Source of the DNA: Desulfobacteraceae bacterium
GTDB taxonomy: Bacteria > Desulfobacterota > Desulfobacteria > Desulfobacterales > UBA5616
DNA: 64,000 nt
Direction: 5' to 3'
NCBI GenBank assembly: GCA_013791935.1
Contig: VMSV01000204.1
Span: 13,415-77,414 of the forward strand
Part shown: positions 3,609 to 58,708 of the stretch, one piece after another
Numbering within the stretch: the stretch's first letter is position 1
How the letters are laid out: the number at the start of each line of letters is the position of its first letter
Notes under the pieces: model-generated
What the model was told of the DNA's origin: nothing
Database searches by the model: none
Seen by the model: the letters and a program-made list of their open reading frames with translations, nothing else
Program-made: the position numbers and the translations under genes

Positions 3609-5012
3609 TTAACAATAGCTGGTTCCGTCCCAGCAATGGGTACAAAGCTTTTCCTTGGGCAGGCCGATGGCCGCAACCAGGTCTTCCAGCCTCTGGTATT
3701 TGAGGGTGGTGAGCCGGAGGCTTTTACGGATTTTTTCGATCATGGCCAGATTCTTTTCGGAGCCTGCCTCGGCATAAAGCTCCAGATCTTTGTCCTCAGT
3801 ACCTTCCAACTCCTGGATGACCTTCCGTCCCGCCAGGTCCAGGGTGGATCGAGAAGTTGAAAAATTGAGGAATTCACATGGATGAATCAGGCAGGGACAA
3901 GCGGGCCGCATATGCACTTCCAGGGCTCCGGCGTCAAAAAGGACTTGGACATTGTCCTTGAGCTGGGTGCCGCGAACAATGGAGTCTTCACAGAAGAGAA
4001 GCCTTTTGCCCTCAATGAGCCTATGCACGGGAATGAGTTTCATCCTGGCCACCAGATCCCGCATCTCCTGGTTCTGGGGCATGAAGCTTCTGGGCCAGGT
4101 GGGGGTATACTTCACGAAGGGACGGCCATAGGGAATTTTTTTCCGGTTCGCATACCCGATGGCATGGCCGATGCCCGAATCGGGGATGCCGGCCACCACA
4201 TCCACTTCCACATCATCACTTGCGGCCAGGGCCGAGCCGCATCGATAGCGGACATCTTCCACATTGATTCCTTCATATTCCGATGCCGGGTATCCATAAT
4301 AGACCCATAAAAAAGAACAGATCTGCATACGGTCTCCGGGGGCAATGCGCTGCTCCCAGCCTTCCGGGGTTAACAACACCACTTCTCCGGGCCCTAAAAA
4401 GTGGTCCTCTTCATAGCCCAGATTTGGGAAAGCGCAGGTTTCAAAGCTAACCGCCGTAGCATCGGGCCGTCGTCCTATAACCAGGGGGGTTCTTCCAAGG
4501 CGATCCCTGGCAGCATAAATCCCGTTTTCCGTGAGCAGAAGAAGGGAGCAGGATCCCTTCAGGGTTTCCTGGGCATAGCGAATTCCCGCCTCAAAACTGT
4601 CTTCCTGGCAGATCAGCATGGCCACCACTTCCGTGGGGTTGATCTCCCCATCGGTGGTGTCGGAAAAGTAACTTTTTCTTAAAAAGGCTTTTTCAACCAG
4701 GTCCTCCATGTTTTTGATCCGACCCACGGTGACAATGCCGAAACTTCCCAGGTGGGAGCCGATGATCAGGGGCTGGGGATCCGTGTCGCTGATCACGCCG
4801 ATTCCCATGTTCCCATGGAATTGGTCCAGTTCGGATTCAAATTTGGACCTGAAATAACTGTTTTCGATATTATGGATGGCGCGATGAATGCCGTTTGCAT
4901 TTCGCACCGCCATACCACCCCTTTTGGTTCCCAGATGGGAGTGATAATCCGTTCCATAGTATAGATCGGATACGCAATCTTTTTTGGATACCACGCCGAA
5001 CATTCCACCCAT
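3609..5012 (-). CDS. amidophosphoribosyltransferase (PurF)-like class-II glutamine amidotransferase/PRTase; N-terminal nucleophile Cys replaced by Phe
   Basis: MFGVVSK aligns with PurF MCGIVGI. GNMGIGVIS matches PurF GNMGIGHVR. Type-I PRTase motif LLFCEDSIVRGTQL present. C-terminal Cys cluster (CPCLIHPC...CTHCWDGTSYC) fits Fe-S type PurF. Start chosen at MGGMFGVV (ATG 5012) with an AAGGAAAA RBS. Confidence 0.7.
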   Translation of the reverse strand: MGGMFGVVSKKDCVSDLYYGTDYHSHLGTKRGGMAVRNANGIHRAIHNIENSYFRSKFESELDQFHGNMGIGVISDTDPQPLIIGSHLGSFGIVTVGRIKNMEDLVEKAFLRKSYFSDTTDGEINPTEVVAMLICQEDSFEAGIRYAQETLKGSCSLLLLTENGIYAARDRLGRTPLVIGRRPDATAVSFETCAFPNLGYEEDHFLGPGEVVLLTPEGWEQRIAPGDRMQICSFLWVYYGYPASEYEGINVEDVRYRCGSALAASDDVEVDVVAGIPDSGIGHAIGYANRKKIPYGRPFVKYTPTWPRSFMPQNQEMRDLVARMKLIPVHRLIEGKRLLFCEDSIVRGTQLKDNVQVLFDAGALEVHMRPACPCLIHPCEFLNFSTSRSTLDLAGRKVIQELEGTEDKDLELYAEAGSEKNLAMIEKIRKSLRLTTLKYQRLEDLVAAIGLPKEKLCTHCWDGTSYC

Positions 5013-5471
5013 TATTTTTTCCTTTTTTTTATAAGGCTTTAAACGAAGTCTATGTTTAAGTGGGTCCTCTGAATTATTCAAGGGTTTTCTGCATCCAGAC
5101 CACATTAAAAATCCGGCCTTTTTTTTTGCCCACCCCTTTTAATTTGAAGATATCCATGACAGGGTTTTGATCTTCTTGGGTCAAGGGGGTTATTGGATGA
5201 ACCATGGCGGTATTTCCTTTTGTCCTTTGAGTTGTAATCGGTCTGATTTTTTTGCTGTGCGCATCATCATGAAGGAATTTTTCCGGATTTTCAATCTGAA
5301 AATGTTATCTGCCGCCCTGCCCTTTTTCCGATTTTTGTGGTTGACTTACGGGAATAAAAACAATAACAAACAGCACTTAACGCCCCTCTGTTCAAGACTA
5401 AAATCACTAACAAGGGATGGGCCACATGACGCGGACAATGGTTTTAAGAATGAACCCTCAAAGGAATCGCC

Positions 5472-7430
5472 ATGGAACTTTATTTCCTGTCGTTGACCCT
5501 GATTTTCTCAGGAGGTTTTTTAGCCCTGATTTTGAACCGGCATTTCACCGCCATGAAACTTGCTGCGGTGATCCCCATCAGTGCCGGGTGCCTTCTGGGT
5601 CTGGCGGATGCCGTTGTCAAGCTGGTCCATGGCGGGTCGGATAAAACCTCTTTTGCCTATCTCAATGCTTTTTCCCTTGATTTTCAGATGGACGCGTTGT
5701 CGGCCTTTTTTTTGATCACCATATTTTTCATCTGCCTGCTGGCATCGATTTACAGCTTCCATTATATAAACAAGCCTGAAAAGACCCTGAAATCTTCGGT
5801 GAGCTATCTTTTCTTTGCCATGCTCATTGTGGCCATGGCCCTGGTGGTGACGGCCAACAACATGATCGCTTTTCTTCTCTCCTGGGAAATCATGTCCATT
5901 TCCTCCTTTTTCCTGGTGATCTACAGCTATACGTCTTCGGAAAACCGATATGCCGGACGTCTTTATTTTATTTTCTCCCAGGTGGGGGCCATGTTCATTT
6001 TTGCCGCTTTCGGCCTGGTGTATCAGGTGACGGGTAATTTTGGATTCACTGATGCGGCAACCCTTTCCCAAGGGGTAAAACTGCTGGTGTTCATTTTTAC
6101 TTTTATCGGATTTGGTTCCAAGGCCGGGGTGTTTCCCCTGCATGTCTGGCTTCCCCACGCCCACCCTGCGGCCCCAAGCCACATCTCGGCGGTGATGTCC
6201 GGGGTCATGATCAAAACCGGCATTTACGGAATTTTAAGAATGTATGCTGTTTTGGACCTGCACACGCCCATTTTGGGGAACATTGTTCTGGCCGCGGGCA
6301 TGGTGTCAGGCATCCTGGGAGTGGTTTACGCACTGGGGCAACATGATCTGAAAAGGCTTCTGGCATACCACAGCGTTGAAAACATCGGCATCATCCTCAT
6401 TGGCCTGGGCATCGGCATGATGGGGGTTTCTTCGGGTAAACCCGTGATGGCGGTGATGGGGTTCGCCGGTGGGCTGCTTCATGTGATGAATCATGCCATT
6501 TTTAAATCCCTTCTGTTTATGGGTGCGGGAATGGTCCTTCAAAAAACCGGCACCGGGACCCTGGACGTTCTTGGTGGGCTACTTAAAAAAATGAAAATCA
6601 CCGGGGCCACGTTTCTGATCGGGTCCATGGCCATTTCGGGGCTTCCGCCCTTTAACGGATTCGTAAGTGAGTTTTTTATCTACCTGGGGGCGTTCAAAGG
6701 AGTCTTGCTCACCGGAAAGCCCCTTGTATTGAGCTTTTTGGGCATTGTGAGCCTGGCGGTCATCGGCGGCCTGGCCCTGGCCTGTTTCACCAAAGTGTTG
6801 GGGGTGGTGTTCCAGGGAGAGCCCAGAAGTGAAGCGGCCAAAGACGTTAATGAGGATGGCTGGTCCATGCTGGTCCCCATGGTGATCCTTGCCGCGTGTT
6901 GTGTGATCATCGGGGTTTACCCAAAATGGTTCATTCTGGCAGCGGTCAAAGCCATCTATTCCCTTAACCCGGGGTACGGTCACATCCCCCTGGATGGTTT
7001 TATTGAGATCACCGGCAATATCTCCCGGGCCGCGTCCCTTTTCTTTGGGGTGATTCTTTTGGTTTTTGCCATTCGTTTCCTGGCGTACAAAAACAAACCC
7101 ATCACCCGGAGAGGGACATGGGGATGCGGTTTTACCCAGCCCACGGCAAGAATGCAGTATACCGGATCATCCTATGCCGCGTCCATTCTAGAATTTTTCA
7201 GGCCGGTGGCTCCTCTGGAAGAACATCATACGGAAATTTCCGGCGTGTTTCCCAAACAGACCCATTATGCCGGCCATGTTCATGACATTGCCGAACGATA
7301 TATGAAAAGGGTGACCGTTTATCCGGTGATGACCCTGTTTGACAAGCTTCGCTTTATTCAGCACGGGGATATCCACCTGTACATCGGGTATATCCTGCTG
7401 GCAATCGTCGTGCTTTTGTTCTTTATATAG
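5472..7430 (+). CDS. complex I NuoL / hydrogenase-4 HyfB / Mrp antiporter-like membrane subunit
   Basis: 652-aa polytopic membrane protein with the proton-pumping antiporter motif WLPHAHPAAPSHISAVMSGVMIKTGIYG. First gene of the six-gene module. Confidence 0.8.
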   Translation: MELYFLSLTLIFSGGFLALILNRHFTAMKLAAVIPISAGCLLGLADAVVKLVHGGSDKTSFAYLNAFSLDFQMDALSAFFLITIFFICLLASIYSFHYINKPEKTLKSSVSYLFFAMLIVAMALVVTANNMIAFLLSWEIMSISSFFLVIYSYTSSENRYAGRLYFIFSQVGAMFIFAAFGLVYQVTGNFGFTDAATLSQGVKLLVFIFTFIGFGSKAGVFPLHVWLPHAHPAAPSHISAVMSGVMIKTGIYGILRMYAVLDLHTPILGNIVLAAGMVSGILGVVYALGQHDLKRLLAYHSVENIGIILIGLGIGMMGVSSGKPVMAVMGFAGGLLHVMNHAIFKSLLFMGAGMVLQKTGTGTLDVLGGLLKKMKITGATFLIGSMAISGLPPFNGFVSEFFIYLGAFKGVLLTGKPLVLSFLGIVSLAVIGGLALACFTKVLGVVFQGEPRSEAAKDVNEDGWSMLVPMVILAACCVIIGVYPKWFILAAVKAIYSLNPGYGHIPLDGFIEITGNISRAASLFFGVILLVFAIRFLAYKNKPITRRGTWGCGFTQPTARMQYTGSSYAASILEFFRPVAPLEEHHTEISGVFPKQTHYAGHVHDIAERYMKRVTVYPVMTLFDKLRFIQHGDIHLYIGYILLAIVVLLFFI

Positions 7431-7445
7431 GGATTGTTTAACACC

Positions 7446-7571
7446 GAAATGGCCAATTTGCCCAATTTCTGCGTTGGACAAAAATTTTAATCCTCAAAAT
7501 ACTATAAGTATTCCTGCGGTTAAAATTTTTGTCCGCCTTGAACTTGAACAAATTTTCTCATTTCTGGATGG
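7446..7571 (+). repeat. MITE-like ~130-bp structured repeat, copy 1, in the intergenic leader before the NuoH-like gene
   Basis: About 90% identical to the reverse complement of 39591-39723. Contains a 15-bp perfect stem GGACAAAAATTTTAA...TTAAAATTTTTGTCC with a nested AATACT/AGTATT hairpin. Ends 37 nt before the ATG at 7609. Confidence 0.6.
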
Positions 7572-7608
7572 GCAATAGGTAGTTTCCATTCAATAAAAAG
7601 GGAACCTG

Positions 7609-8526
7609 ATGATTTCTATTCTTCTTTACATTCTTGCGATTCTTGTTTCACCGTTTTTTGCTGCGGTGATTCTCAAGGTGAAGGCCTTTTTCGGAGGGAA
7701 AAAGGGTCCGCCCCTGCTCATCCATTACTACACCCTGATCAAGCTCTTTAAAAAAGGATCGGTCTACAGCACCAGCACGACCTATATCTTTAAACTAGGG
7801 CCCGTGGTTTCTCTGGGCACGGCGGCAACCGCGTTGATGTTTCTTCCCATCGCCGGTTTTTCACCGCTTATTTCATTCAAGGGCGATATCATTTTTGTTT
7901 TTTACCTTCTGGCCCTGGGCCGGTTTTTCACCATTGCCGCAGCCATGGACACAGCCTCCCCGTTTGAAGGCATGGGGGCGGCTCGGGAAGCCTATTTCCC
8001 CATCATCTGTGAGGCTACCTCCTTCATGATCGTGATCCTGTTCTCCCGGCTTTCCGGAGAATTGAACCTGGCCGCCTATTTTTCCGAGAACCAGCCCATG
8101 GTTCTGTGGCAGAATGCCGGGGCTGCTCTTGTTTTTGTGGTGGTGGCGTTTTTCATTGTACTTCTCACGGAAAACGCCAGGGTTCCCGTGGACGACCCAG
8201 CCACCCATCTGGAGTTGACCATGATCCATGAGGTCATGGTTCTGGACCATAGCGGCCCGGATTTCGGATTGATTGAACTCGGGTCTTTTATAAAATTGTT
8301 TTTTTATTCAACCATCGTGGCGAGACTGGTTTTCCCCTTTGATTTGGGGAGCGGAGTGGCCAACGGCGGGGCTTTTGCCCTTACCCTGTTGTTCCTTTAT
8401 ACGGTGGCAGGGGTGGTTGAGTCGATCATGGCGCGCTACAGAATGGACAAGGTGCCCAAATTTATCCTCACCTCCTTTGCCCTGGCCTTTGTGGCAACCC
8501 TGATCACCCTGGAGGTCATAAGATGA
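7609..8526 (+). CDS. complex I NuoH / formate hydrogenlyase subunit 4 (HycD/HyfC)-like membrane subunit
   Basis: 305-aa membrane protein with NuoH/HycD-like helices. RBS AAAGGGAACC. Confidence 0.75.
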   Translation: MISILLYILAILVSPFFAAVILKVKAFFGGKKGPPLLIHYYTLIKLFKKGSVYSTSTTYIFKLGPVVSLGTAATALMFLPIAGFSPLISFKGDIIFVFYLLALGRFFTIAAAMDTASPFEGMGAAREAYFPIICEATSFMIVILFSRLSGELNLAAYFSENQPMVLWQNAGAALVFVVVAFFIVLLTENARVPVDDPATHLELTMIHEVMVLDHSGPDFGLIELGSFIKLFFYSTIVARLVFPFDLGSGVANGGAFALTLLFLYTVAGVVESIMARYRMDKVPKFILTSFALAFVATLITLEVIR

Positions 8527-9164
8527 CGCAACTTGTTGACATCATATTGTCCCTATCCCTTTTGTCCATCATCTTTTCATTCGGTTCCAGCCGGTTGCAG
8601 GGATTGATCAAGGCCCTGGCCTTTCAGGGCATCGTGGTCTCCATCGTTCCCTTTTTCATGGGGCACGAACTTTCCGGGGGCGACATCATTTTTTCCCTGA
8701 CCACCCTTCTGATTCGGGGCATCGGCATTCCCCTGTATCTTTACTCGGCCATTGAAAAAATAGCCGTCCATCGGGAACTTGAACCCATCATCGGCTACCA
8801 CGGGTCCATTCTCATCGGGCTTCTCATGGTTGTGGCCGCCATGTTCGTGAGCCGAAAGATCAACGTGCCGTCAGCCAGCGACAGCTTACTTCTGCTACCC
8901 ACGGCCATGGTTTTGCTTTCCGGGGGCATGTTTTTGATGATGGCCCGGCGAAAAGCCATCACCATGGTTTTGGGGTACATGACCATGGAAAACGGCATCT
9001 ATCTGGTGGGAACCACATTTTCCGTGCGGGCACATCATATCGTGGAATTCGGCGTGCTTCTGGATGTTCTTGCCGGAGTCATGATCATGGCCGTGATTCT
9101 TCAAAATATGAAACAGGGGGCGGAAGATCCGGACATGGCCCTTAACAAAATTTCCAAGGAGTAG
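8523..9164 (+). CDS. hydrogenase-4 component E (HyfE)-like small membrane subunit
   Basis: 213-aa hydrophobic protein. 4-nt start/stop overlap with the previous gene; size and position match HyfE. Confidence 0.65.
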   Translation: MTQLVDIILSLSLLSIIFSFGSSRLQGLIKALAFQGIVVSIVPFFMGHELSGGDIIFSLTTLLIRGIGIPLYLYSAIEKIAVHRELEPIIGYHGSILIGLLMVVAAMFVSRKINVPSASDSLLLLPTAMVLLSGGMFLMMARRKAITMVLGYMTMENGIYLVGTTFSVRAHHIVEFGVLLDVLAGVMIMAVILQNMKQGAEDPDMALNKISKE

Positions 9165-9171
9165 GTCATTC

Positions 9172-10593
9172 ATGGTGGAAATCCTTTTTCTGGTTCCTTT
9201 TCTTACGGGCGTGCTCTCGTTTTTTCTGCCGAGCAAACCCGGCCGGAGCATGCTGGTGCTGACCGGCGCGATTCACTTCGTACTGACCCTTGTGCTCTGG
9301 ATCATTCGGCCCGGGGCCCTGATGCCCGCCTATTTCATGGTGACACCGGAAGGCCTTTTGTCCCTGTCGGTGATTTCCCTCCTCTTTCTGTTGATCTCCA
9401 TCTACACGACGGCGTATATCGAGAGCGCCCACATCCGCAATGAAAAGGTTTTCATCGGATCCATGCTGCTTTTTTTGTCCACCATGACCATGGTCACCCT
9501 TTCAGACCATATCATGGTCATGTGGATTGCCATAGAATCCACCACCCTGGCCAGTGCACCCTTGATCTACACGTCCGGGTCCCCGAAATCCCTGGAAACC
9601 ACCTGGAAATACGTTTTCATCTGCTCCGTGGGGATTGCTATGGCGCTTTTGGGCTCGGTCCTGATTTCCCTGGCCGTGGATGCGGGTGGTGAAAATGTCC
9701 CCATGTCTTTTTCAGCGCTTTCCGCGCAAGCCCCTCGCCTTGATAGCATGTGGCTCAAAGCCGGTTTTATTTTTATCCTCGTGGGATACGGGACCAAAAT
9801 GGGGCTTGCACCCATGCACACCTGGCTTCCCGATGCCCATAGCGAGGCCCCGAGCCCCGTGTCGGCCCTGCTCTCCGGCGTGCTGCTCAATTGCGCCTAT
9901 CTGGGTATTTTTAAAACCCACAAAATCATGGTCAGCGCCGGGTTGGCTGATTTCTCGGGAACCCTTCTCATGGCCTTCGGGATCGTCTCCATTCTGGCCG
10001 CCGCCACCTTTATTCTCAAACAGGGGGAGTACAAGCGCCTTTTGGCCTATTCCAGCATCGAAAATATGGGGATTATCGCTTTCGGAACCGGGCTGGGGGG
10101 CATCGGGGTTTACGGCGCCATACTCTGTCTGATTCATCACAGCCTGATCAAATCCTCTTTGTTTTTAACCTCGGGCAATATTCTACTGGGGTACGGCAAT
10201 CGTTTGATCGTGCAAACGGGAAACCTGGCCGGTCAAATGCCAAAAACTTTTGTGGCCTTTTTCGCCGGATTTGTGGGAATATCCGGTTTTCCGCCCTTCG
10301 GCATATTCATGGGAGAATTGCTGATCATCGTGGGGGCTTTCCGCACGGGGCATACGATTTGGGCCGGTATCTTCATTGCAAGCCTTTGCATCATCGTCGC
10401 CGGGTTTGTTAATCAGGTCATGCGGATATCCTTTGATGATGCCCCGAAAACCGTTAATTTTAAGGAAAAAGCACGGTTGATCTGGCCCCAGTTTACCTTG
10501 CTTGCGACCTCGGTGGTTTTAAGCTTCTGGATACCCGATGTGGTGTACCTGGAAATCGTCAATGCAGTGGTGTCCGTGGGTGGGGGATTTTAA
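9172..10593 (+). CDS. complex I NuoN/NuoM / HyfF-like antiporter-type membrane subunit
   Basis: 473 aa with the Mrp-type motif WLPDAHSEAPSPVSALLSGVLLNCAYLG. AAGGAG RBS. Confidence 0.8.
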   Translation: MVEILFLVPFLTGVLSFFLPSKPGRSMLVLTGAIHFVLTLVLWIIRPGALMPAYFMVTPEGLLSLSVISLLFLLISIYTTAYIESAHIRNEKVFIGSMLLFLSTMTMVTLSDHIMVMWIAIESTTLASAPLIYTSGSPKSLETTWKYVFICSVGIAMALLGSVLISLAVDAGGENVPMSFSALSAQAPRLDSMWLKAGFIFILVGYGTKMGLAPMHTWLPDAHSEAPSPVSALLSGVLLNCAYLGIFKTHKIMVSAGLADFSGTLLMAFGIVSILAAATFILKQGEYKRLLAYSSIENMGIIAFGTGLGGIGVYGAILCLIHHSLIKSSLFLTSGNILLGYGNRLIVQTGNLAGQMPKTFVAFFAGFVGISGFPPFGIFMGELLIIVGAFRTGHTIWAGIFIASLCIIVAGFVNQVMRISFDDAPKTVNFKEKARLIWPQFTLLATSVVLSFWIPDVVYLEIVNAVVSVGGGF

Positions 10594-12110
10594 TGAAAAC
10601 GAATTTTTTAACACTGGATAACGGCCGGGCCGTCCCAAGGGACAAGATTCCCCATTTGTCCTTTGAGAATTTTCGGGAAGAAGCATTGGCCATCGTGGGG
10701 GACGGCGGCAATGTGGTGCAATTTTTCGCTTACCAGGACACGGATCACACGCTTAAAATGCTGGCTGTTCTAAGATCGAAGGACCATACCCTGCTTGCAG
10801 CGGGTTGTGATGCTCCGCCTTCCTGGCCCGCCCTTTCCGCGATCTGCAGGCCTTTTCATTTGTTTGAACGGGAAATGGCCGAACAGTTCGGCCTTCGGCC
10901 CGAAGGGCACCCCTGGTTGAAAATGGTCCGATACCATGCCAACTGGATGGGGAAGGAAGACATTTTCGGAAACGATTATAGGGAAGATATTCCGGGAAAC
11001 TATGACTATTACTCCGTGACCGGAGATGAGATTCATGAGGTTGCGGTGGGACCGGTTCATGCGGGGGTCATCGAGCCCGGCCATTTCAGGTTCAACTGCA
11101 TCGGCGAAAAGGTGTTGCACCTGGAGATTCAATTGGGCTATCAGCATCGGGGGGTGGAGCTATTGCTTCTCAAGGCCGGGGCTTCCCGTCTGCCCATTAT
11201 TGCTGAAGGCATTGCAGGCGATACCGCCATCGGTCACAGCCTTTGCATGGCCCAGGCCGTGGAGGGACTTGCGGGTATTGAAGTGGATCAGGGGGCCAGA
11301 ATCAGTCGAACCATTGCCCTGGAACTGGAGCGCATTGCAAATCATGTGGGAGATTTGGGCGCCTTGAGCGGAGATGTGGCCTTTCTGCCCGTGGCCAACT
11401 ACTGCGGAAGAATGCGGGGAGATTTTCTCAATATGTCCCTGTGGATGTGCGGAAACCGTTTCGGCAAAGGCCTGGTTCGTCCGGGGGGGGTACGCTTTGC
11501 CTTGACCGATGAAGACAGAAGCGTGCTTCTGGGGCGCATCAACGAGTTGAAACCCCAGGTGGAACATGTCATCGATCTTCTATTCTCAACCTCCAGTGTT
11601 CGCGCCAGGTTTGAAGACTGCGGGGTGGTGCCCACCGAGATTGCCAAAAAACTGGGACTTGTGGGGCCTTCGGGCCGGGCCAGCAGTTTGCCGTATGATG
11701 CTCGACGCTGCTTTCCCACGGAATATTACTCTCAATTGTCGATTCCCGAAAGCGCCCTGGCCGGTTGCGATGTTTATGCCCGGGCCAGAGTCCGCGCCGA
11801 TGAAGTGCTTCAATCCATAGGAATCATTCAATCTTTGCTTTCCCATTCGGTGAATACTCACCCGGTGGAAACAATTGATTTTGCCCTGGCTCCGTCTTCT
11901 TTTACGGTGGCGATCAATGAAGCCTGGCGGGGGGAAGTCTCCCATGCCCTTCTCACCGACGGAAATGGCAAACTGCTTCGGTATAAAATCAAGGATCCGT
12001 CCTTTCACAACTGGAACGGTCTGGCCATGGCCTTAAGGAATACGGGAATTTCGGATTTCCCCTTGAACAACAAGAGCTTTAACCTGTCTTACTGCGGGTT
12101 TGATCTTTGA
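10593..12110 (+). CDS. fused NuoC-NuoD / HycE-like large subunit lacking all four Ni-Fe ligating cysteines (Ehr-type)
   Basis: GPVHAGVIEPGHFRF and YQHRGVE are conserved. The L1 motif RxCGxCxxxH reads EGIAGDTAIGH (Cys to Ala, Cys to Thr) in a gap-free alignment with the EchE sequence written from memory. The C-terminus ends ...NLSYCGFDL with no DPCxxCxxR motif. ATG overlaps the upstream TAA. Confidence 0.8.
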   Translation: MKTNFLTLDNGRAVPRDKIPHLSFENFREEALAIVGDGGNVVQFFAYQDTDHTLKMLAVLRSKDHTLLAAGCDAPPSWPALSAICRPFHLFEREMAEQFGLRPEGHPWLKMVRYHANWMGKEDIFGNDYREDIPGNYDYYSVTGDEIHEVAVGPVHAGVIEPGHFRFNCIGEKVLHLEIQLGYQHRGVELLLLKAGASRLPIIAEGIAGDTAIGHSLCMAQAVEGLAGIEVDQGARISRTIALELERIANHVGDLGALSGDVAFLPVANYCGRMRGDFLNMSLWMCGNRFGKGLVRPGGVRFALTDEDRSVLLGRINELKPQVEHVIDLLFSTSSVRARFEDCGVVPTEIAKKLGLVGPSGRASSLPYDARRCFPTEYYSQLSIPESALAGCDVYARARVRADEVLQSIGIIQSLLSHSVNTHPVETIDFALAPSSFTVAINEAWRGEVSHALLTDGNGKLLRYKIKDPSFHNWNGLAMALRNTGISDFPLNNKSFNLSYCGFDL

Positions 12111-12148
12111 TGGGCAACCATCATGAAAAATGAAAAAGTGAAATCACC

Positions 12149-12892
12149 ATGCTAAGAACCCTGAAAAACAGATTTGAACAAGGCTATCGGACGTCCGCCT
12201 ATCCCAAAACCCCCATTGAATTGCCCCAACGATACCGGGGTCTCCCGAAAGTCCATCAAAAAGTCTCTCAGGAAGTGGCGGACCAATGTGAAGCAGCCTG
12301 CCCCCAAAAGGCCATTGATGGAAAAAACAAACGCATCGACCTGGGCCGATGCGTGTTCTGCGGAACTTGCGAGCGGATTTCAAACGGGGGTTTCGCTTCC
12401 TTTTCCCGGTCTTTTGAGCTGGGAACGGCACAAAGGGACCATCTTTTCACCAACGGCACCCTTCCGTCTTTGGCTGAAAATGCCAAGGACCATTTTAAAA
12501 AACTCTTTGGCCGGTCCCTTCAGTTGCGGCAGGTGTCCGCCGCCGGATGCAATGCCTGTGAAGCGGATCTGAACGTATTGGCAACGCCTTTTTTTGACCT
12601 GGCCCGGTTCGGCATCAATTTTGTGGCTTCCCCCCGCCACGCCGACGGCATTGTGGTCACAGGACCCATTTCAAGAAACATGAAAAAAGCTCTGCTGGAA
12701 ACCTTTGATGCGGTGCCTTCCCCCAAGGTGGTCATTGCCGTGGGGGCCTGCTCCATTTCAGGCGGTCCGTTTCACGGCAGCCCCGAAGTCTCCGAAGGGT
12801 TGGGGGATCTTCTTCCCGTGGATCTCTTCATTCCCGGCTGCCCGCCCCATCCCCTGACCAATCTCCATGCCCTGCTGACGTTTTTCAAATAG
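12149..12892 (+). CDS. fusion of a NuoI/HycF-like 4Fe-4S ferredoxin domain with a NuoB/HycG-like small subunit
   Basis: N-terminus has CEAACP plus CVFCGTCERIS, i.e. 5 Cys, enough for one full cluster only. C-terminus has the NuoB/HycG motifs GCNACEADL, VIAVGACSISGGPF and IPGCPPHP, so N2-cluster ligands are retained. Confidence 0.8.
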   Translation: MLRTLKNRFEQGYRTSAYPKTPIELPQRYRGLPKVHQKVSQEVADQCEAACPQKAIDGKNKRIDLGRCVFCGTCERISNGGFASFSRSFELGTAQRDHLFTNGTLPSLAENAKDHFKKLFGRSLQLRQVSAAGCNACEADLNVLATPFFDLARFGINFVASPRHADGIVVTGPISRNMKKALLETFDAVPSPKVVIAVGACSISGGPFHGSPEVSEGLGDLLPVDLFIPGCPPHPLTNLHALLTFFK

Positions 12893-12897
12893 CCCAA

Positions 12898-14322
12898 TCA
12901 AGGTTTGATGACCAGGGTGGGGTACAACCCCTGCAACCGGCCCTGGGGGTAGGGTTGAAGGGTGTTGAAGGAAATGTTCTGGTTGTTCTGGGCATGGCCC
13001 TTGTTGGCCCCGGAAGCATTGTAAAAGGCTCCGTTGGCTTCCAGAATATGGTGAATCCTGTCCCGGAACGCGTTAACGAACGCCGCGCCGCTTCCTTCAA
13101 AAAACATCCGGCCCTTGGAGAAATGGGCGTTGATGTTTTTAAAATCCACGATGGCCATGCTGTTGGCTTCCAGCTCTTTGGGGTTGGTGATCATCCCCCA
13201 GGCAATATAACCCGCCGGAACAACGATTTTTTCCCTGGCATCGATAATGGTGTGGGGCATGATGATGGACTCTTTTTCAATGGAAAGGCGGCAGTCCGGA
13301 CGACCCCGCAGGAAACTGTTGAAGCCCACGAATACGTTTTTGCCCAGGTCTGCTTCGATGATCTTGGCCCCATGGGCTGTAACATTGTTACCTTCGAGCT
13401 TGCTGTTGATGATATAACAGTTTTCCTGGGCGTTGGCCCCCTGTCCCAGCCAGGCGTTTTGCAGAAAAGCCCTTTGGGACACCAGAACGTTTTCGCCGAT
13501 ATGGGTTTCGGGTTTGGTTACGGCATACCGGTCCAAAGAAGCGCTTTTGGGAACCGGGATGGAAGACGGAACATTCACCTTGTCAAACACCATCTGGAAG
13601 GCCTCCTTGCGGTCTTCCACAAAATCCACGATCTGGCCCTGGGGTGGTTTCCCCCCTGAAAAATAAACAAAATCATTCAGCTGGGCCATGGGATACCGGT
13701 AGAGAAAGTTAAACGTGTCATCTTTCTTCACCCACACGGTTCCCGGCGCCACATTCAAATGGCTGATCTCCCCGGCCTGGACGTATGAAAAGGTTCCCAC
13801 CACGGAATCGGTGACCGTGGTTAAATCCACGGTGGAAAAGGGTCCAAGAAAACACCCGGACGTGGGGGAGCCGTGAATATTGGCGTAGTTCAAGGAAATG
13901 GTGTCGTTGATAAAAAAATTCTCCAGGGTCTCCGGGTCGTGGGAATAGTTGTGAACCAGGGTCTTGTTGAGAAAACTGTCTTCAATGACAATGCCCTCAT
14001 CATCGGTGAGGGGAATTTTTTGATCTTGAAAAGCGAACAGGTCGCCTTTTTTCTTCAATTCGTCACCCCGGATGTCGCTTTTGTACAAAACCGCGTTTTT
14101 GACCCGGCATTTCCCCAGAAAATAACTGCCGGACAGGCAGGAATGGGTGAACTGCATATCCAGGGGGTGGCTGGAGGTAATCCCATAGAAAGCGTAGAAT
14201 TTCATCAGTTTATCATAAGGAAGAAGCTCCTTCAGCATGGGCTGGACATCGATGTTCAGCTCGCGAAGGTTGATGCTGGTCCGCAGGATGATTCTTTCAA
14301 ATAGTTTTTCCAGTTCTTTCAT
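12898..14322 (-). CDS. hypothetical protein with hexapeptide-like (left-handed beta-helix) repeats
   Basis: 474-aa ORF converging on the NuoIB-like gene. The stretch IGENVLVSQRAFLQNAWLGQGANAQENCYIINSKLEGNNVTAHGAKIIEADLGKNVFVGFNSFL has LbH periodicity. No catalytic motif recognised. Confidence 0.5.
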   Translation of the reverse strand: MKELEKLFERIILRTSINLRELNIDVQPMLKELLPYDKLMKFYAFYGITSSHPLDMQFTHSCLSGSYFLGKCRVKNAVLYKSDIRGDELKKKGDLFAFQDQKIPLTDDEGIVIEDSFLNKTLVHNYSHDPETLENFFINDTISLNYANIHGSPTSGCFLGPFSTVDLTTVTDSVVGTFSYVQAGEISHLNVAPGTVWVKKDDTFNFLYRYPMAQLNDFVYFSGGKPPQGQIVDFVEDRKEAFQMVFDKVNVPSSIPVPKSASLDRYAVTKPETHIGENVLVSQRAFLQNAWLGQGANAQENCYIINSKLEGNNVTAHGAKIIEADLGKNVFVGFNSFLRGRPDCRLSIEKESIIMPHTIIDAREKIVVPAGYIAWGMITNPKELEANSMAIVDFKNINAHFSKGRMFFEGSGAAFVNAFRDRIHHILEANGAFYNASGANKGHAQNNQNISFNTLQPYPQGRLQGLYPTLVIKP

Positions 14323-14333
14323 GGAGGAATCCT

Positions 14334-14897
14334 TTATGTCTTTGCGATTTTTTCGTTTTCTCTCATGGCATGAAAAATGGCGGCAAATACATCCGTCATG
14401 CGAAGAATGCCGATGATATCCTTGTCCTGCATAACCATCAGGGATAGATAATTCCCTTTGGAAAGCTGGAAGATGGCTTTGTCCAGGGACGCGTCGGCCG
14501 CAATCAATTCCCCGGCTGACGGTGTTTTCATGAAATCCTCCACCTTCATATTGGCGGGTCCCGAGCAGATTTCATTCAAGGAACGCCCCTTGGGCCGGTA
14601 TTGTTCGTGGACGGATGCAATAAAGGCCGGGCTGAAACCGAACTGGGCTGCTTCCTCCAAGCCTTCCACATGGGTATTTCCAGAAATGATCGCCCGTAAA
14701 ACGTCATTCTGGCTGAGCTTTCCCACCACCCGTTTGTTTTTGTTCATGACGAGCACCGCACGGTGGCGATACTTGGTGTAATCAAATTCCTCCTGGGCTT
14801 TTTCCAGAGCATCAACGGCCTGATAGAGGGTTGACCCCTCGGGAACCGTGGCGTATTCTGAAATAGGAACCATTAAATCTTTTACGATGTATTCCAT
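14334..14897 (-). CDS. CBS-pair domain protein
   Basis: Two CBS motifs (VKDLMVP...VPEGSTLYQAVDAL; VEDFMKTPSAGELIAADASLDKAIFQL). Confidence 0.7.
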   Translation of the reverse strand: MEYIVKDLMVPISEYATVPEGSTLYQAVDALEKAQEEFDYTKYRHRAVLVMNKNKRVVGKLSQNDVLRAIISGNTHVEGLEEAAQFGFSPAFIASVHEQYRPKGRSLNEICSGPANMKVEDFMKTPSAGELIAADASLDKAIFQLSKGNYLSLMVMQDKDIIGILRMTDVFAAIFHAMRENEKIAKT

Positions 14898-15079: not shown

Positions 15080-15754
15080 ATGCTGGTTCGGGATTGGATG
15101 AGCAAAACGGTTATTACGGCTGATGCGGAAGATTCCATGCAAGACGCGGTCAGACTGTTGAAAGACCACGGAATAAAAATACTACCGGTTTTGGACCACG
15201 GAAAACTCGCAGGAATTGTGACCGACCGGGACCTGAAGCGGGCCTCGGCATCGGACGCCACAACCCTGGAAATCCACGAACTGGTCTATCTTCTTTCCAA
15301 AATAAAAATCAAGGAGGTCATGACCCCCCACCCGGTGACCGTTTCCCTGGACGCAACCATAGAAGAAGCGGCCCAGGCCATGCTTGCCCGTAAAATATCC
15401 GGGGTTCCGGTGGTGGACCCCAATGGTGAAGTCCATGGGATAATCACCCAGAATGACCTGTTCCGGGTCATCATCTCCTTTACGGGCATTGATAAAAAAG
15501 GAATCCAGATCGGCCTTCAAACCTTGGATAGACCCGGAGCCCTCTCCTATTGCCTGGACATGATCCGGCAGCAAAACGGAAGAATCATGAGCGTATTAAG
15601 CTCCAGGGAACAGGCCCCGGAAGGAACTCTGAGAATCTATATCCGGGCTTTTGATATTGAAGGGGATAAACTTGAAGCCCTGAAAAAAGAGTTTCAGTCC
15701 AAGGCGGATATCCTGTACCTCGTAGATCATCAATCGGGCCGCAGAACCTTGTAA
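15080..15754 (+). CDS. CBS-pair + ACT domain protein (AcuB-like)
   Basis: MLVRDWMSKTVITA...GIKILPVLDHGKLAGIVTDRDL CBS pair followed by a C-terminal ACT-like domain. Confidence 0.7.
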   Translation: MLVRDWMSKTVITADAEDSMQDAVRLLKDHGIKILPVLDHGKLAGIVTDRDLKRASASDATTLEIHELVYLLSKIKIKEVMTPHPVTVSLDATIEEAAQAMLARKISGVPVVDPNGEVHGIITQNDLFRVIISFTGIDKKGIQIGLQTLDRPGALSYCLDMIRQQNGRIMSVLSSREQAPEGTLRIYIRAFDIEGDKLEALKKEFQSKADILYLVDHQSGRRTL

Positions 15755-17384: not shown

Positions 17385-20300
17385 ATGGTTGAACGATTGG
17401 CGAAAGGTCTATTTCACAGCATGCAAAGCGAAACCATCAGCGGGAATCCTGTTCAAAATATACTTGGTCTGTGCCTGGGGGCCACCACCCTTTCCATGGT
17501 TCATCTTCGGGCCCCCCTGGATTCGGAAAAACCCAACGAAGTTTTGCCTGAAATCGTAAACACCCGCTTATACACCCACGAAGGAAATCCTAAAAAAACC
17601 CTTCAACAGGCCCTGGAAGAGATGGATCTTTACCGGTTCGACAAAATTGCGGCCACGGGAAGAAAATTTCGCCATTACGTGAATTTTACTTCCATTTCTG
17701 AATCCGAAGCCGTGGAATATGCATACCGGTTTGTCAAAGCGCCCGGCATTTCCTCCCAGGCCATTGTGTCTGCCGGGGGGGAAACCTTCATGGTGTATGC
17801 TTTGAATCAAAAGGGCCAGATTTCCAATGTCATCACAGGAAATAAATGCGCCTCGGGAACCGGGGAGTTCTTCCTTCAGCAGCTAAGGCGCATGAATGTC
17901 ACCCTTGCGGAGGCCGCTCTTTGGGCTGCTGATGAGACCCCCTATGGGGTTTCCGGGCGATGCAGCGTGTTCTGCAAATCCGACTGCACCCATGCCACCA
18001 ACAAGGGAATCCCCAAGGCCAATGTCACGGCAGGCCTATGCCGCATGATGGCCGGCAAGGTTTTGGAGCTGCTCAAGAACATCGATAGAACAAACATCAT
18101 GATCACCGGGGGCGTTACCCAAAACAAAATGATGGTTGAATACTTAAAACAGGAAATTCCCGGACTGATCATTCCCCGGGAGGCCGCCTGTTTTGAGGCC
18201 CTGGGGGCTGCCCTCTGGGCGACCCGGAACCCCACCGATGCCTTTACCCGGAACATGTCGCTGTTTAATGCCCGTGCAGGCACCACGGACACCCTGGCCC
18301 CCCTTTCGGAGTTTGAACACAGGGTGGAGTTTAAAACCATGGCCAAAGATCAAGTGAAAGCCGGGGACATCTGCATCCTGGGTCTGGACGTCGGTTCCAC
18401 CACCACCAAGGCCGTCCTGATGCGAAAACAGGACCATGCCCTGCTGGCCTCGGTGTATCTCAGAACCAACGGTGATCCTGTGGGGGCCTCCCGGAATTGT
18501 TATGGCGCCATTCTGGAGCAGATCCAACATGCCGGGGTCCTTCCGGAAGACATTCAAATCACGGGGCTCGGGGTCTGCGGTTCGGGTCGGCAGATTGCAG
18601 GCCTTCATGCCCTGACCGACGGGGTGATCAATGAAATCATCGCCCACGCCGAAGCCGCGGTTTTCTTTGATGACAAGGTGGATACGATTCTGGAAATCGG
18701 AGGCCAGGATGCCAAATACACCTATATCGTCAACGGAGTCCCGGCGGATTACGCCATGAACGAGGCCTGTTCCGCCGGAACCGGTTCGTTCCTGGAGGAA
18801 TCCGCCCTGGAAACCCTCGGGATTAAAATGGAAGAGATCGCCCCCATTGCGCTGGCCGCAAAATCCCCCCCCAATTTCAATGACCAGTGCGCGGCCTTCA
18901 TCGCCTCGGATATCAAGAACGCCATTCATGAGGGCGCCTCCCATGAGGATATCGTGGCAGGTCTGGTCTATTCCATCTGCATGAACTACACGAACCGGGT
19001 GAAGGGCAACCGGAAGGTGGGAGAAAAGATCTTCATGCAGGGAGGGGTTTGCTACAACCGCGCTGTGCCCTTGGCCATGGCGTCTCTTCTGGGAAAATCC
19101 ATGGTGGTTCCGCCGGAACCTGGCCTCATGGGGGCTTTCGGAGTGGCCCTGGAAGTTAAAAAAAGACTCCGCCACGGCCTTCTGGAAGAAAAAGCCTTTG
19201 ATCTCAAAAATCTTTATCAACGAGAAGTTCTTTACAAGGAGTCCTTTGTCTGTAAAGGCGGGAAACCCCGCTGCGACCGGAAATGCGACATCGCAAGGAT
19301 TGAAGTGGAGGGCAAAACCTATCCGTTCGGCGGTGCCTGCAACCGGTATTACAACCTGAGAAGCCGGATAGAAGTAAATGTTGAAGAGCTTGACCTGGTC
19401 CAAAAAAGGCAGGACCTGATCTTCCAGGAATACGCCGCTTTCGCGGCCGCAAAAGAGGCTCCTTACAGAGGGGCAGTGGGTATCAACAGGAGCTTCATGA
19501 CCAACACCTACTATCCCTTGTACTCCACCTTTTTTTCCGAACTCGGGATGGAGCCCTTTCTTTCCCGGGAATCCCTGCAGAAAGGCATTGACCGGCGGGG
19601 TTCGGCCTTCTGCTACCCTTCGGAGCTGGCCCACGGCTATCTTTATTCCCTGCTGACGGGTGAAAAGCCCCTGGATTACCTGTTTCTTCCCCATTTCAAG
19701 GCCGTGCCCACCCAGATCGAGAATTTCACTTCCCAGGTCTGCCCCATTGTTCAGGGGGAAAGCTTTTACCTCGCGGCCAGTTTCAAAAAGGAAATCAAAG
19801 CCCTGGAGGCCAAGGGGTTACGGATACTTTCGCCTTTACTGGATCTGTCCCAAGGGGATTTTGAGGCGAAAAAACCCCTGGTTGCCATGGCGATTTCCAT
19901 GGGAATTCCCAAAGCGGAGGCCGCAAGGGCCTTTGAAAAAGCCCTGAAAGTTCAAAAGGACTGCTTTGCCGAGATGAAAGACCTGGGGAAAAAAGCCTTG
20001 ATCACCCTGGAATCCCGGCCGGATAAAACCGGTGTGGTGCTCTTTGCCAGGGCCTACAACGGATTTGTGGAAGAAGCCCACATGGGGATTCCCAATAAAT
20101 TCGCCTCCAGGGGCATTTTAACCCTTCCCTATGATTTTCTGGATTTTGAAGAAGAGGAAGCAAAACATCACATGTACTGGGGCATCGGCCAGCGTCTCAT
20201 GAAGGCCACCCGGATGGTCAAAAAGCATCCCCAACTGTTCGGGGCCTTCATCACAAACTTCTCCTGCGGACCGGATTCCTTTTTAATTACCTATTTCAGG

Positions 20301-21809
20301 GATATCATGGAGCAAAAGCCATCCCTCACCCTGGAGCTGGACAGCCATTCGGCGGATGCCGGTCTTGAGACCCGTATCGAGGCATTTCTGGATATCGTCC
20401 ATGGGTCCCGAAAAATGGGACCGGCCATGAAAAAAGCTGGGGGGGGAAACCATTTTGTTCCCGCCGTCTGCTTCCGGAACAACGGCATCCCCAAAATTCA
20501 GACCGGCAACGGCAAGGTGTTTTCCTTTAGCGATCCTGCGGTGAACATTCTCATCCCTTCCATGGGGAAAATCAGTTCCGAAGCCCTGGCAGCCGCATTC
20601 CGCAGCACAGGGTACAAAACCCTGGCCCATCCTCCGGCGGATGAAGCCATTCTGAAGATGGGAAGGGCCAATACCTCCTGCAAGGAATGCCTTCCCTTGA
20701 TCCTCACCACCGGGACCCTGCTGAACTACATCGAGAACCACAGGAAAAAGGATGAGGTTCTCGTCTACTTCATGCCCACCACCAACGGACCCTGTCGTTT
20801 CGGCCAATACGCGACCTTCATGGAAGACCTGGTCCGCCGAATGCGCATTCCCGATGTGGCGGTCTTCTCCCTGTCCGCCGAAAACACCTACGGTGGACTG
20901 GGCAATGGTTTTGAGAAAAAGGCCTGTTGGGCCATCATGCTGGCGGATATCATGGAGGACATCCGGTCCATGCTTCTTGCCAACGCCCGAGACCCCGAGG
21001 AGGCCATGGAGATTTTCGGCTTACTCTGGAAGGTCACTCTTGAAGAGATGGAGAGGGGTGTGGGACGGTCTTTTCAGGAAAAACTTCGGGGGGTTGCCCG
21101 AGAACTGGGGAAAATTGCCCTTCGGCGACCGGTTTCCGAAGTTCCGGTGATTTCCCTCATCGGCGAAATTTTTGTGCGCCGGGACGGAATTTCAAGGCGG
21201 CACATTACGGAACAGCTGGCCTTGAAGGGTTTTGCCGTAACCTGCTCTCCCGTTATGGAATGGCTGTACTACCTGGACTACCTGGCCTTAAGAAACCAGG
21301 GGAATGAAAACCTCAATTTGAAGGAAAGGATAGGGATTTTCCTCAAAACCCGGTTTAAAAAGAGTTACGAGTTACGGCTCAAATCCATCCTCTCAAAATC
21401 CGGCCTGATTTCTTCCCATCCCATTGAGATTGAGACCATTGTGAAAAACGGCAAAGACCATGTCTCCCTTAACCTCGGAGGCGAGGCCATCCTCACTGTG
21501 GGCAGCGCCCTCACGGACGTGGCCTCCCATGCCTGCGGGGTCATCTCCATCGGTCCCTTCGGATGCATGCCCACACGCATTGCCGAGGCAATTTTAACCG
21601 AAAACATGAACCGCGAAGGCAAATTGGCCACGGTTCCCAAAGATCCCCGTATGGAAAATCTCCTGGCCGACATGGAAGATCTCCCGTTTTTATCCATCGA
21701 AAGCGACGGGTCCCCCTTTCCCCAGCTCATCAACGCCAAGCTCGAAACTTTCTGCCTTCGCGCCCTCAGGCTCAATGAAAAGATGCTGGCCCAAGGGCAG
21801 GGACTCTGA
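17385..21809 (+). CDS. large CoA-substrate-specific enzyme activase-like protein (two BadF/BadG/BcrA/BcrD-type ATPase domains + DUF2229-like C-terminus)
   Basis: Two acetate/sugar-kinase-fold ATPase modules (GLCLGATTLSMVHL...; ICILGLDVGSTTTKAVLM...EIGGQDAKY) and a long Cys-rich C-terminal region. 1474 aa. Exact start uncertain (ATG 17385 or 17421). Confidence 0.7.
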   Translation: MVERLAKGLFHSMQSETISGNPVQNILGLCLGATTLSMVHLRAPLDSEKPNEVLPEIVNTRLYTHEGNPKKTLQQALEEMDLYRFDKIAATGRKFRHYVNFTSISESEAVEYAYRFVKAPGISSQAIVSAGGETFMVYALNQKGQISNVITGNKCASGTGEFFLQQLRRMNVTLAEAALWAADETPYGVSGRCSVFCKSDCTHATNKGIPKANVTAGLCRMMAGKVLELLKNIDRTNIMITGGVTQNKMMVEYLKQEIPGLIIPREAACFEALGAALWATRNPTDAFTRNMSLFNARAGTTDTLAPLSEFEHRVEFKTMAKDQVKAGDICILGLDVGSTTTKAVLMRKQDHALLASVYLRTNGDPVGASRNCYGAILEQIQHAGVLPEDIQITGLGVCGSGRQIAGLHALTDGVINEIIAHAEAAVFFDDKVDTILEIGGQDAKYTYIVNGVPADYAMNEACSAGTGSFLEESALETLGIKMEEIAPIALAAKSPPNFNDQCAAFIASDIKNAIHEGASHEDIVAGLVYSICMNYTNRVKGNRKVGEKIFMQGGVCYNRAVPLAMASLLGKSMVVPPEPGLMGAFGVALEVKKRLRHGLLEEKAFDLKNLYQREVLYKESFVCKGGKPRCDRKCDIARIEVEGKTYPFGGACNRYYNLRSRIEVNVEELDLVQKRQDLIFQEYAAFAAAKEAPYRGAVGINRSFMTNTYYPLYSTFFSELGMEPFLSRESLQKGIDRRGSAFCYPSELAHGYLYSLLTGEKPLDYLFLPHFKAVPTQIENFTSQVCPIVQGESFYLAASFKKEIKALEAKGLRILSPLLDLSQGDFEAKKPLVAMAISMGIPKAEAARAFEKALKVQKDCFAEMKDLGKKALITLESRPDKTGVVLFARAYNGFVEEAHMGIPNKFASRGILTLPYDFLDFEEEEAKHHMYWGIGQRLMKATRMVKKHPQLFGAFITNFSCGPDSFLITYFRDIMEQKPSLTLELDSHSADAGLETRIEAFLDIVHGSRKMGPAMKKAGGGNHFVPAVCFRNNGIPKIQTGNGKVFSFSDPAVNILIPSMGKISSEALAAAFRSTGYKTLAHPPADEAILKMGRANTSCKECLPLILTTGTLLNYIENHRKKDEVLVYFMPTTNGPCRFGQYATFMEDLVRRMRIPDVAVFSLSAENTYGGLGNGFEKKACWAIMLADIMEDIRSMLLANARDPEEAMEIFGLLWKVTLEEMERGVGRSFQEKLRGVARELGKIALRRPVSEVPVISLIGEIFVRRDGISRRHITEQLALKGFAVTCSPVMEWLYYLDYLALRNQGNENLNLKERIGIFLKTRFKKSYELRLKSILSKSGLISSHPIEIETIVKNGKDHVSLNLGGEAILTVGSALTDVASHACGVISIGPFGCMPTRIAEAILTENMNREGKLATVPKDPRMENLLADMEDLPFLSIESDGSPFPQLINAKLETFCLRALRLNEKMLAQGQGL

Positions 21810-58692: not shown

Positions 58693-58708
58693 TGGCACGG
58701 GGGTTGCT
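58693..58708 (+). promoter_or_regulatory. sigma-54 promoter: TGGCAC-GGGGG-TTGCT (-24/-12)
   Basis: Exact match to the TGGCAC-N5-TTGC consensus, 72 nt upstream of the ATG at 58780. Downstream of the sigma-54 activator gene. GTGAAAT-N11-ATTTCAC inverted repeats lie 250-390 nt upstream. Confidence 0.6.

Follow-up and report, generated by a model that had tools for sequence, protein, structure and literature searches.

In Geobacter, the subunits of Ehr are named EhrA-D, L, and S (PMC7894505), and a fusion of NuoI to NuoB beside a fusion of NuoC to NuoD is recorded for Ehr (PMC6349859 Supplementary Note 4). Judged from its subunit sequences, Ehr is a six-subunit, complex-I-like membrane enzyme that is related to Hyf and whose large subunit cannot bind nickel-iron (NiFe). 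It occurs widely among anaerobes (Desulfobacterota including cable bacteria, Planctomycetota, Omnitrophota, Margulisbacteria, Nitrospira, and others), and the literature that mentions Ehr calls its function unknown. Here, we describe a six-gene cassette of this kind in a 64,000-nucleotide stretch of a Desulfobacteraceae genome (contig VMSV01000204.1, positions 13,415 to 77,414; the whole stretch is called the window). We focused our attention on its last gene, which encodes a 247-amino-acid (aa) fusion of a HycF/NuoI-like half to a HycG/NuoB-like half. Motifs and gene content make it very probable that this gene encodes the EhrS-type small subunit of an Ehr complex. Alignments indicate that the protein keeps the ligands of two [4Fe-4S] clusters, medial and proximal, and has lost those of the distal one, a loss that recurs across the family.

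To place these ligands, we relied on related complexes. The published order of electron flow runs from ferredoxin to N6a (distal), N6b (medial), and then N2 (proximal) (PMC6616624). In MbsN, residues C61, C64, C67, and C106 ligate the distal cluster and C71, C96, C99, and C102 the medial cluster; that is, the distal cluster is held by cysteines 1-3 of the first motif and cysteine 4 of the second, and the medial cluster by cysteine 4 of the first motif and cysteines 1-3 of the second (PMC8165549). In NuoB-type subunits, a CxxC spacing is the hydrogenase type, and CC is that of complex I (PMC7684303).

A fused small subunit and its cluster ligands

The reading frame of the fusion gene is 744 nucleotides long and uninterrupted, and its start codon is backed by M1, R8, Q11, R14, and T15, which are kept across homologs. 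An earlier note on this DNA, made from the letters alone, had described the product as a single polypeptide joining two proteins that hyc/hyf and nuo operons encode separately, and the domain searches it had suggested bear this out. With NCBIfam, residues 1-105 matched positions 1-112 of the 180-position HycF model PRK12387 (E = 7.6e-16) and also HyfH (5.8e-13), and residues 131-244 matched NuoB models (3.4e-32). With Pfam, Oxidored_q6 was found on residues 134-243 (2.4e-26), and Fer4 families appeared only below threshold, on residues 46-76. Sequence searches of the PDB returned MbhJ (6cfw_J, 7.6e-32) and HycG (7z0s_G, 3.4e-30) for the C-terminal half, with the NuoB/HycG/MbhJ-like match spanning residues 113-244, and HycF (7z0s_F, 1.8e-8), E. 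coli NuoI, and MbsN for the N-terminal half.

The alignment to HycF starts from model residue 1-5, and an N-terminal helix and loop precede the ferredoxin fold, as in HycF/HyfH; in HycF, this helix and loop sit near the membrane surface (PMC9474812). Similarity to HycF runs out around query residue 98-105, and similarity to HycG picks up at query residue 113 (HycG residue 27), so the linker between the halves is roughly a dozen residues long. Absent from the fusion is HycF's C-terminal extension (HycF residues ~106-180), which carries a Cys4 metal site and touches HycB and FdhF in formate hydrogenlyase (PMC9474812). An AlphaFold2 model built on 41 homologs had a mean predicted local distance difference test (pLDDT) score of 83.5 and a predicted template modeling (pTM) score of 0.84. 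It places a helix at residues 2-10 followed by a low-confidence loop, exceeds a pLDDT of 90 over residues 31-100, and drops to 61-77 at the linker; its C-terminal domain was superposed by Foldseek on MbhJ (6cfw_J) with a root-mean-square deviation of 1.5 A over 126 columns. A helix at residues 41-50 spans the degenerate first ferredoxin motif (A44 and C47). The ferredoxin-like domain is thus predicted by the model to fold confidently despite its lost cluster ligands.

Nine cysteines are present in the whole protein (47, 51, 68, 71, 74, 134, 137, 201, and 231). The first ferredoxin motif reads C47xxxC51P and the second C68xxC71xxC74 followed by ERIS78N, in agreement with the CxxxCP motif and the missing CP ending that the earlier note had pointed out. 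By alignment, the medial ligand set is complete (C51, C68, C71, and C74, one full [4Fe-4S] set), and the distal set is down to an orphan, C47; the earlier count of five ferredoxin-half cysteines, enough for one cluster, therefore stands, as against the eight, in two complete CxxCxxCxxxCP motifs, of a NuoI/HycF/MbhN subunit with 2x[4Fe-4S]. In the alignment to HycF, a gap is placed differently and V43, not A44, falls at the second distal position. Alternative ligands that would restore the distal cluster were ruled out, since positions 40, 43, and 78 vary within the clade (position 78 is S, G, A, E, Q, or V). The NuoB-type motifs, previously given as intact, are GC134NAC137E, GAC201SISGG, and PGC231PP, with all four proximal cysteines in place. 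Taken together with the published ligand sets and electron order, these assignments indicate that the protein keeps the cluster beside the NuoB one and has lost the entry cluster.

A search of a set of 5.8 billion proteins gave at least 8,000 candidates, of which the best 120 are described here. All of these are full-length (247-284 aa, nearly all 247-250) and 69-99% identical; their named sources are Desulfobacteraceae or unclassified (delta)proteobacterial metagenome-assembled genomes (MAGs), and one deposited MAG protein is 99% identical to the window fusion. An exhaustive search of 50% representatives yielded 236 clusters at E <=1e-30, among which many full-length fusions extend down to ~36% identity. 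When one genome per species was scanned, at least 559 genomes contained a relative. Counts of related loci given below refer to the best 80 of these, which come from Desulfobacterales, Desulfobulbales (including a cable bacterium), Desulfuromonadales, Planctomycetota, Omnitrophota, Verrucomicrobiota, Riflebacteria, Myxococcota, Cloacimonadota, and Leptospiraceae. Wherever the flank sufficed, HyfB-, NuoH-, HyfE-, HyfF-, and NuoCD-like genes precede the fusion in the same cassette across phyla, and the fusion junction is conserved.

The composition of the window cassette equals that published for Ehr (PMC6349859 Supplementary Note 4; PMC7894505): membrane subunits are encoded together with NuoC-NuoD and NuoI-NuoB fusions, the large subunit is a homolog of NuoD and the group 4 [NiFe]-hydrogenase large subunit without the two NiFe-binding CxxC motifs, and the small subunit has the four proximal ligands, which are conserved in relatives. 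Because the published note covers the NuoI-NuoB fusion of Ehr, that fusion is already on record; the window protein is an unremarkable representative of a known and widespread family, and the fusion itself is nothing new. Its architecture, which the earlier note had called unusual, is so relative to hyc, hyf, and nuo operons but is standard within Ehr.

Recurrent loss of the distal cluster ligands

We compared the ferredoxin cysteines among the fusions of the 80 related loci. All eight are kept in 28, with a first motif of the form Cx3Cx2Cx3CP, and the distal ligands are missing in about 50; none retains the distal set while losing the medial set. Every reduced form retains C51, C68, C71, and C74, and C47 and positions 40, 43, and 78 vary. 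Among 18 divergent single-cluster fusions (33-64% identity to the window protein), C51, C68, C71, C74, C134, C137, and C201 do not vary and C231 hardly does, and the ligands of the two clusters are conserved likewise across the 80 loci. By this pattern of conservation, the ligands of both remaining clusters are under strong purifying selection.

A rough neighbor-joining tree of 171 sequences, read with Fitch parsimony, places the 8-Cys form at the root and requires ~16 state changes. The window protein falls in a large Desulfobacterales/Desulfobulbales single-cluster clade, whose members usually keep C47. Independent of it is a second lineage, with just four Cys, found in the cultured Desulfuromonadales Desulfuromusa kysingii, Desulfuromonas carbonis, and Geopsychrobacter electrodiphilus; it sits within a group of 8-Cys relatives such as Desulfuromonas versatilis. 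On this tree, the single-cluster state is derived, and the distal cluster was lost repeatedly, always the distal and never the medial one. A loss that is both repeated and directional constrains the point at which electrons enter. We also noted two Omnitrophota loci (L056 and L068) in which distal cysteines 1-2 are gone and cysteines 3-4 are kept; from their sequences, these look like an intermediate step of distal-cluster loss.

No description of distal-cluster loss in Ehr was found by a literature search that did not reach the primary Ehr papers (Coppi 2005; Marreiros 2013), and no match named Geobacter was among the best 120 in protein searches with Desulfuromonadales fusions as queries. 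The repeated, directional loss is possibly new, and its novelty is modest.

The large subunit, a proposed mechanism, and its alternatives

The ehrL-like product has HycE (7z0s_E) as its best PDB match. The NiFe ligands of HycE (C241, C244, C531, and C534) align to A208, T211, S499, and G502, and EhrL does not have the four cysteines of group 4 [NiFe]-hydrogenases (RxCGxCxxxH and DPCxxCxxH/R), its lone C501 lying one residue off; this agrees with the earlier note, which had called the large subunit cofactor-less. What stands at the two NiFe motifs is itself conserved. The pattern E..AGD[TS]..[GA][HNY] is kept in essentially all of the related loci, across phyla, and NLSYCG[FHVY]D[LI] hardly varies from Desulfobacterales through to Planctomycetota and Omnitrophota. 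Such conservation suggests that AGDT and NLSYCGFDL form a site not described before, to which one Asp, one Thr, and one Cys belong, and the near-invariance of the substitute motifs argues for a working site. EhrL also keeps the hydrogenase EPGHF loop, including its conserved Glu. Features of the complex I Q-module are not found: H38 and Y87, the quinone ligands of Nqo4, align to I160 and G209 of EhrL, and EhrS has GCNACE in place of the CCxxE of NuoB.

Overall, the best explanation, and probably the right one, is an EhrS with a two-cluster relay in an ion-translocating Ehr oxidoreductase. We give about an even chance to the full mechanism, that is, a two-cluster wire, medial entry, a non-NiFe site, and ion coupling. 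The peripheral arm would consist of EhrS and the NuoC-NuoD-like EhrL only, with the wire running from the medial to the proximal cluster. Electrons would be exchanged directly between the medial cluster and either a soluble one-electron carrier (ferredoxin being the simplest choice) or a dehydrogenase that docks transiently. They would then pass to or from a non-NiFe site where EhrL, EhrS, and EhrB meet, with the AGDT and SYCG motifs as its lining, and turnover would be coupled to ion translocation by EhrB and the antiporter-like EhrA and EhrD, as in MBH, MBS, and complex I. MBS is a precedent for a member without a NiFe site that can still be catalytic (PMC7684303, PMC8165549). For the Desulfobacterales type, this predicts 8 Fe per complex, not 12, and electron entry at the medial cluster. 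It would also constrain attempts to purify or model Ehr, in that the complex can do without its distal cluster and selection is strong on the medial and proximal clusters and on the AGDT/SYCG site.

A more specific proposal is that Ehr of Desulfobacterota runs on a minimal two-cluster wire with a dispensable distal entry cluster, the medial cluster exchanging electrons with an unrecognized partner, perhaps the products of clade-specific neighboring genes such as the beta-helix protein at 12898-14322 or, at loci of Desulfobulbales type, a 393-aa protein (both described below), each with a faint likeness to a carbonic anhydrase. We regard this as a long shot. If it were true, Ehr would not be fed like MBH, MBS, and NDH-1, in which ferredoxin passes electrons to the distal cluster; were these neighbors the partners, Ehr would more likely carry out an energy-coupled reaction that involves neither hydrogen nor quinone chemistry.

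Several points weigh against a working two-cluster relay. A literature search found no study in which any Ehr complex was characterized biochemically or structurally, and electron transfer, substrate, and ion pumping are inferred by homology throughout. The 23 kb around the window cassette contain no fdh or other redox gene, and no electron-input gene is consistently beside the cassette in the related loci. Recurrent cofactor loss also fits relaxed selection on electron transfer. Moreover, four distant relatives among the 50% representatives (P0159, P0173, P0259, and P0261) keep the medial cysteines and have all four NuoB-domain ligands replaced (e.g., by D, T, D, and N), so that members of the wider family can dispense with the wire.

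If the redox arm were vestigial, Ehr would be an Mrp-type ion transporter, driven by proton-motive force or regulatory, whose remaining clusters are structural or redox-sensing and whose decay is ongoing. The stepwise loss of cofactors (NiFe in all Ehr, the distal cluster repeatedly, and proximal ligands in a few distant relatives) speaks for it, as does the want of a conserved electron-donor gene beside the cassette, where the conserved neighbors are regulators (HTH_17 + PTS_EIIA_2, or a sigma-54 response regulator with a kinase). Still, we consider it unlikely: the eight residues that ligate the two remaining clusters hardly change at all among fusions as divergent as ~33% identity, the medial cluster is never the one lost, and the AGDT and NLSYCGxDL motifs of EhrL are near-invariant across phyla, which is unexpected for a decaying site. 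The same gene neighborhoods count against an obligate partner, that is, a separately encoded dehydrogenase (e.g., formate dehydrogenase) on which the two-cluster EhrS docks and whose terminal cluster replaces the distal one. Ehr subunits are more abundant in formate-grown Geobacter sulfurreducens (PMC7894505), a complex of formate dehydrogenase with Ehr has been proposed for Riflemargulisbacteria and Saganbacteria (PMC6349859), and, without the distal cluster, the cluster of a partner would come within tunneling distance of the medial one. But the C-terminal extension with which HycF contacts HycB and FdhF is missing, and with no such redox gene found around the cassette, an obligate partner is quite improbable.

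That the fusion is an artifact, with hyfH-like and hyfI-like genes joined by a frameshift or assembly error or with cysteines hidden by alignment gaps, has a negligible chance of being correct, even though E. coli hyfH and hyfI are adjacent separate genes in the same order. The earlier note had cautioned about both a frameshift and hidden cysteines, and neither turned up. Full-length homologs of about 247 aa are abundant, with at least 120 cluster representatives aligning end to end, at least 559 species genomes encode a relative, and the junction is conserved; hence, the fusion is neither chance nor a sequencing frameshift, and the product reads as one open reading frame. With nine cysteines in the whole protein, no gap placement can recover eight in the ferredoxin half. 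We therefore rejected the artifact.

Genes around the cassette and comparison with known systems

All six genes of the cassette (5472-12892) point the same way, and the fusion gene comes last. Two pairs among them are closely packed or overlap; the start of the ehrC-like gene overlaps the stop of the ehrB-like gene. The coordinates of genes, domains, and ligands are collected in Table 1.

Table 1. Features of the Ehr-like cassette and of its fused small subunit, in window coordinates
Feature	Residues	Position	Strand	Basis
ehrA-like gene, HyfB/NuoL-type antiporter-like membrane subunit	652 aa	5472..7430	+	NCBIfam hydrogenase 4 subunit B, 1.3e-169; Pfam Proton_antipo_M, Proton_antipo_N
ehrB-like gene, NuoH/HyfC-type membrane anchor	305 aa	7609..8526	+	Pfam NADHdh, 1.5e-32
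ehrC-like gene, HyfE-type small membrane subunit	213 aa	8523..9164	+	NCBIfam PRK11492, 2.8e-22
ehrD-like gene, HyfF/NuoM-N-type antiporter-like subunit	473 aa	9172..10593	+	NCBIfam hydrogenase 4 subunit F, 1.8e-95; Pfam Proton_antipo_M
ehrL-like gene, fused NuoC-NuoD/HycE-like large subunit	505 aa	10593..12110	+	Pfam Complex1_30kDa, Complex1_49kDa; HycE 7z0s_E, 1.4e-46
EhrL motif AGDT, at hydrogenase CGxC (first NiFe motif)	A208-T211	11214..11225	+	Alignment to HycE and MbhL
EhrL C-terminal motif NLSYCGFDL, at hydrogenase DPCxxCxxR (second NiFe motif)		12081..12107	+	Alignment to HycE
ehrS-like fusion gene	247 aa plus stop	12149..12892	+	Domain matches, cysteine positions, AlphaFold2 model
N-terminal amphipathic helix and long loop, NuoI/HycF type	1-35	12149..12253	+	Aligns to HycF 5-35
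Ferredoxin-like domain with one predicted [4Fe-4S] site	36-105	12254..12463	+	HycF, NuoI, and MbsN matches
Degenerate first motif, three distal-cluster cysteine positions	S40, A44, C47	12266..12289	+	Alignment to MbsN C61/C64/C67 and to HycF
Predicted medial (N6b-type) ligand set	C51 (12299-12301), C68 (12350-12352), C71 (12359-12361), C74 (12368-12370)	12299..12370	+	Aligns to MbsN C71, C96, C99, C102
Residue in place of distal ligand 4	S78	12380..12382	+	Alignment to MbsN (C106)
Linker between HycF-like and HycG-like halves	~100-112	12446..12484	+	Alignment ends; pLDDT dip
NuoB/HycG/MbhJ-type domain	113-247	12485..12889	+	Profile and structure matches; proximal (N2-type) ligands
Predicted proximal ligands	C134, C137, C201, C231	12548-12550, 12557-12559, 12749-12751, 12839-12841	+	Alignment

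A search for a sigma-54 promoter upstream of ehrA gave no match better than chance, and in a scan of 5000-13200 for sigma-70 promoters and terminators, counts equaled the shuffle level. The sole perfect match in the window to the sigma-54 consensus TGGCAC-N5-TTGC is at 58693-58707 (+), just downstream of a sigma-54-type response regulator gene (56938-58302). In 24 related loci, a protein of ~230 aa with HTH_17 and PTS EIIA-2 domains is encoded upstream of ehrA on the same strand, directly so in most (e.g., L052:2562-3239, L054:2755-3495, and L075:2826-3530); this gene is present at most loci with the 8-Cys form. Desulfobacterales and Desulfobulbales loci often carry a sigma-54 response regulator and a histidine kinase instead, and neither arrangement adjoins the window cassette.

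Genes downstream of the cassette vary between phyla. In the window, the flanking genes encode amidotransferase-like, left-handed beta-helix, and CBS proteins, an NAD(P)HX repair enzyme, a large BcrAD/BadFG-type ATPase, fumarase, and aconitase. The beta-helix protein (474 aa; 12898-14322, -) is convergent with ehrS, ending 5 nucleotides from its stop, and matches the 'putative acetyltransferase' 3C8V of the PDB end to end (1.7e-150). We did not accept it as a gamma-carbonic anhydrase, as its match to 8gpm has an E-value of 0.074 and, on our reading of that match, one of three zinc His residues is kept. Its homologs adjoin the Ehr cassette in 17 Desulfobacterales loci, in varying position and orientation; in L008, L019, and L020, they come immediately downstream of it on the same strand. 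Two CBS-domain proteins are encoded at 14334-14897 (-) and 15080-15754 (+); homologs of the former join the beta-helix gene beside the cassette in several Desulfobacterales loci, where a gene for a 495-aa permease, absent from the window, often accompanies them. A 1474-aa protein (17385-21809, +), encoded between the NAD(P)HX repair gene and fumarase, combines a DUF2229 'CoA enzyme activase' domain with two BcrAD/BadFG-type ATPase regions.

A 393-aa protein, whose gene is likewise absent from the window, flanks the Ehr cassette on the same strand in five loci (L022:11072-12253, L024:2152-3324, L028:2035-3129, L030:1804-2985, and L038:1953-3134) and follows the beta-helix gene, several kb downstream, in a sixth (L042:12280-13467). 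These loci are mostly of Desulfobulbales type and include a cable bacterium. As an LCIB-type carbonic anhydrase, the protein is a weak lead: its one family match, to LCIB_C_CA (PF18599; E = 0.0055), is sub-threshold, and a profile of six sequences found no sequence match in the PDB.

Among described systems, the Ehr of Geobacter sulfurreducens (ehrA-D, L, S; GSU0739-45) and that of Riflemargulisbacteria have the same six components in the same roles, and in both, as in the window, the small-subunit gene encodes NuoB and NuoI homologs. The published Ehr account mentions the NuoI-NuoB fusion; the window EhrS is one without the distal ligands. The gene order of E. coli formate hydrogenlyase-2 (hyfABCDEFGHIJ) matches the window cassette as B-C-E-F-G-H-I, and HycE, HycF, and HycG of formate hydrogenlyase-1 (HycB-G; PDB 7Z0S) are among the best PDB sequence matches. 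Formate hydrogenlyases share with the window the hydrogenase-type spacing of the proximal CxxC and the EPGHF loop. However, their HyfH/HycF and HyfI/HycG are separate proteins, which are fused in the window, and HyfA/HycB, HyfD, HyfJ, and FdhF have no counterpart in its cassette. HycF holds two [4Fe-4S] clusters and a C-terminal metal site touching HycB and FdhF, whereas the window EhrS has neither the distal cluster nor the extension; likewise, the formate hydrogenlyase large subunit binds NiFe, and the window EhrL is without the NiFe ligands.

MBS/Mbx (6U8Y) and MBH (6CFW) of Pyrococcus furiosus are complex-I-like, ion-translocating, and fed by ferredoxin through a chain of distal, medial, and proximal [4Fe-4S] clusters. 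There, MbsN/MbhN and MbsJ/MbhJ are each a subunit of their own and neither ferredoxin cluster is missing; in the window, the two subunits are fused and the distal cluster is lost. The catalytic site of MBS is a three-Cys proximal cluster, whereas all four proximal cysteines are present in the window, and the MBS/MBH membrane arm has many more, Mrp-derived subunits than the window cassette. The Q-module of ferredoxin-dependent NDH-1/complex I (NuoB, C, D, and I) is homologous and passes electrons from N6a to N6b to N2. NuoC-NuoD fusions, as in the window EhrL, are known in bacteria. Complex I has a tandem CC in NuoB and His38 and Tyr87 in Nqo4, where the window has GCNACE, I160, and G209, and its NuoI is a separate protein with two clusters, in contrast to the fused NuoI-like half of the window EhrS with its one.

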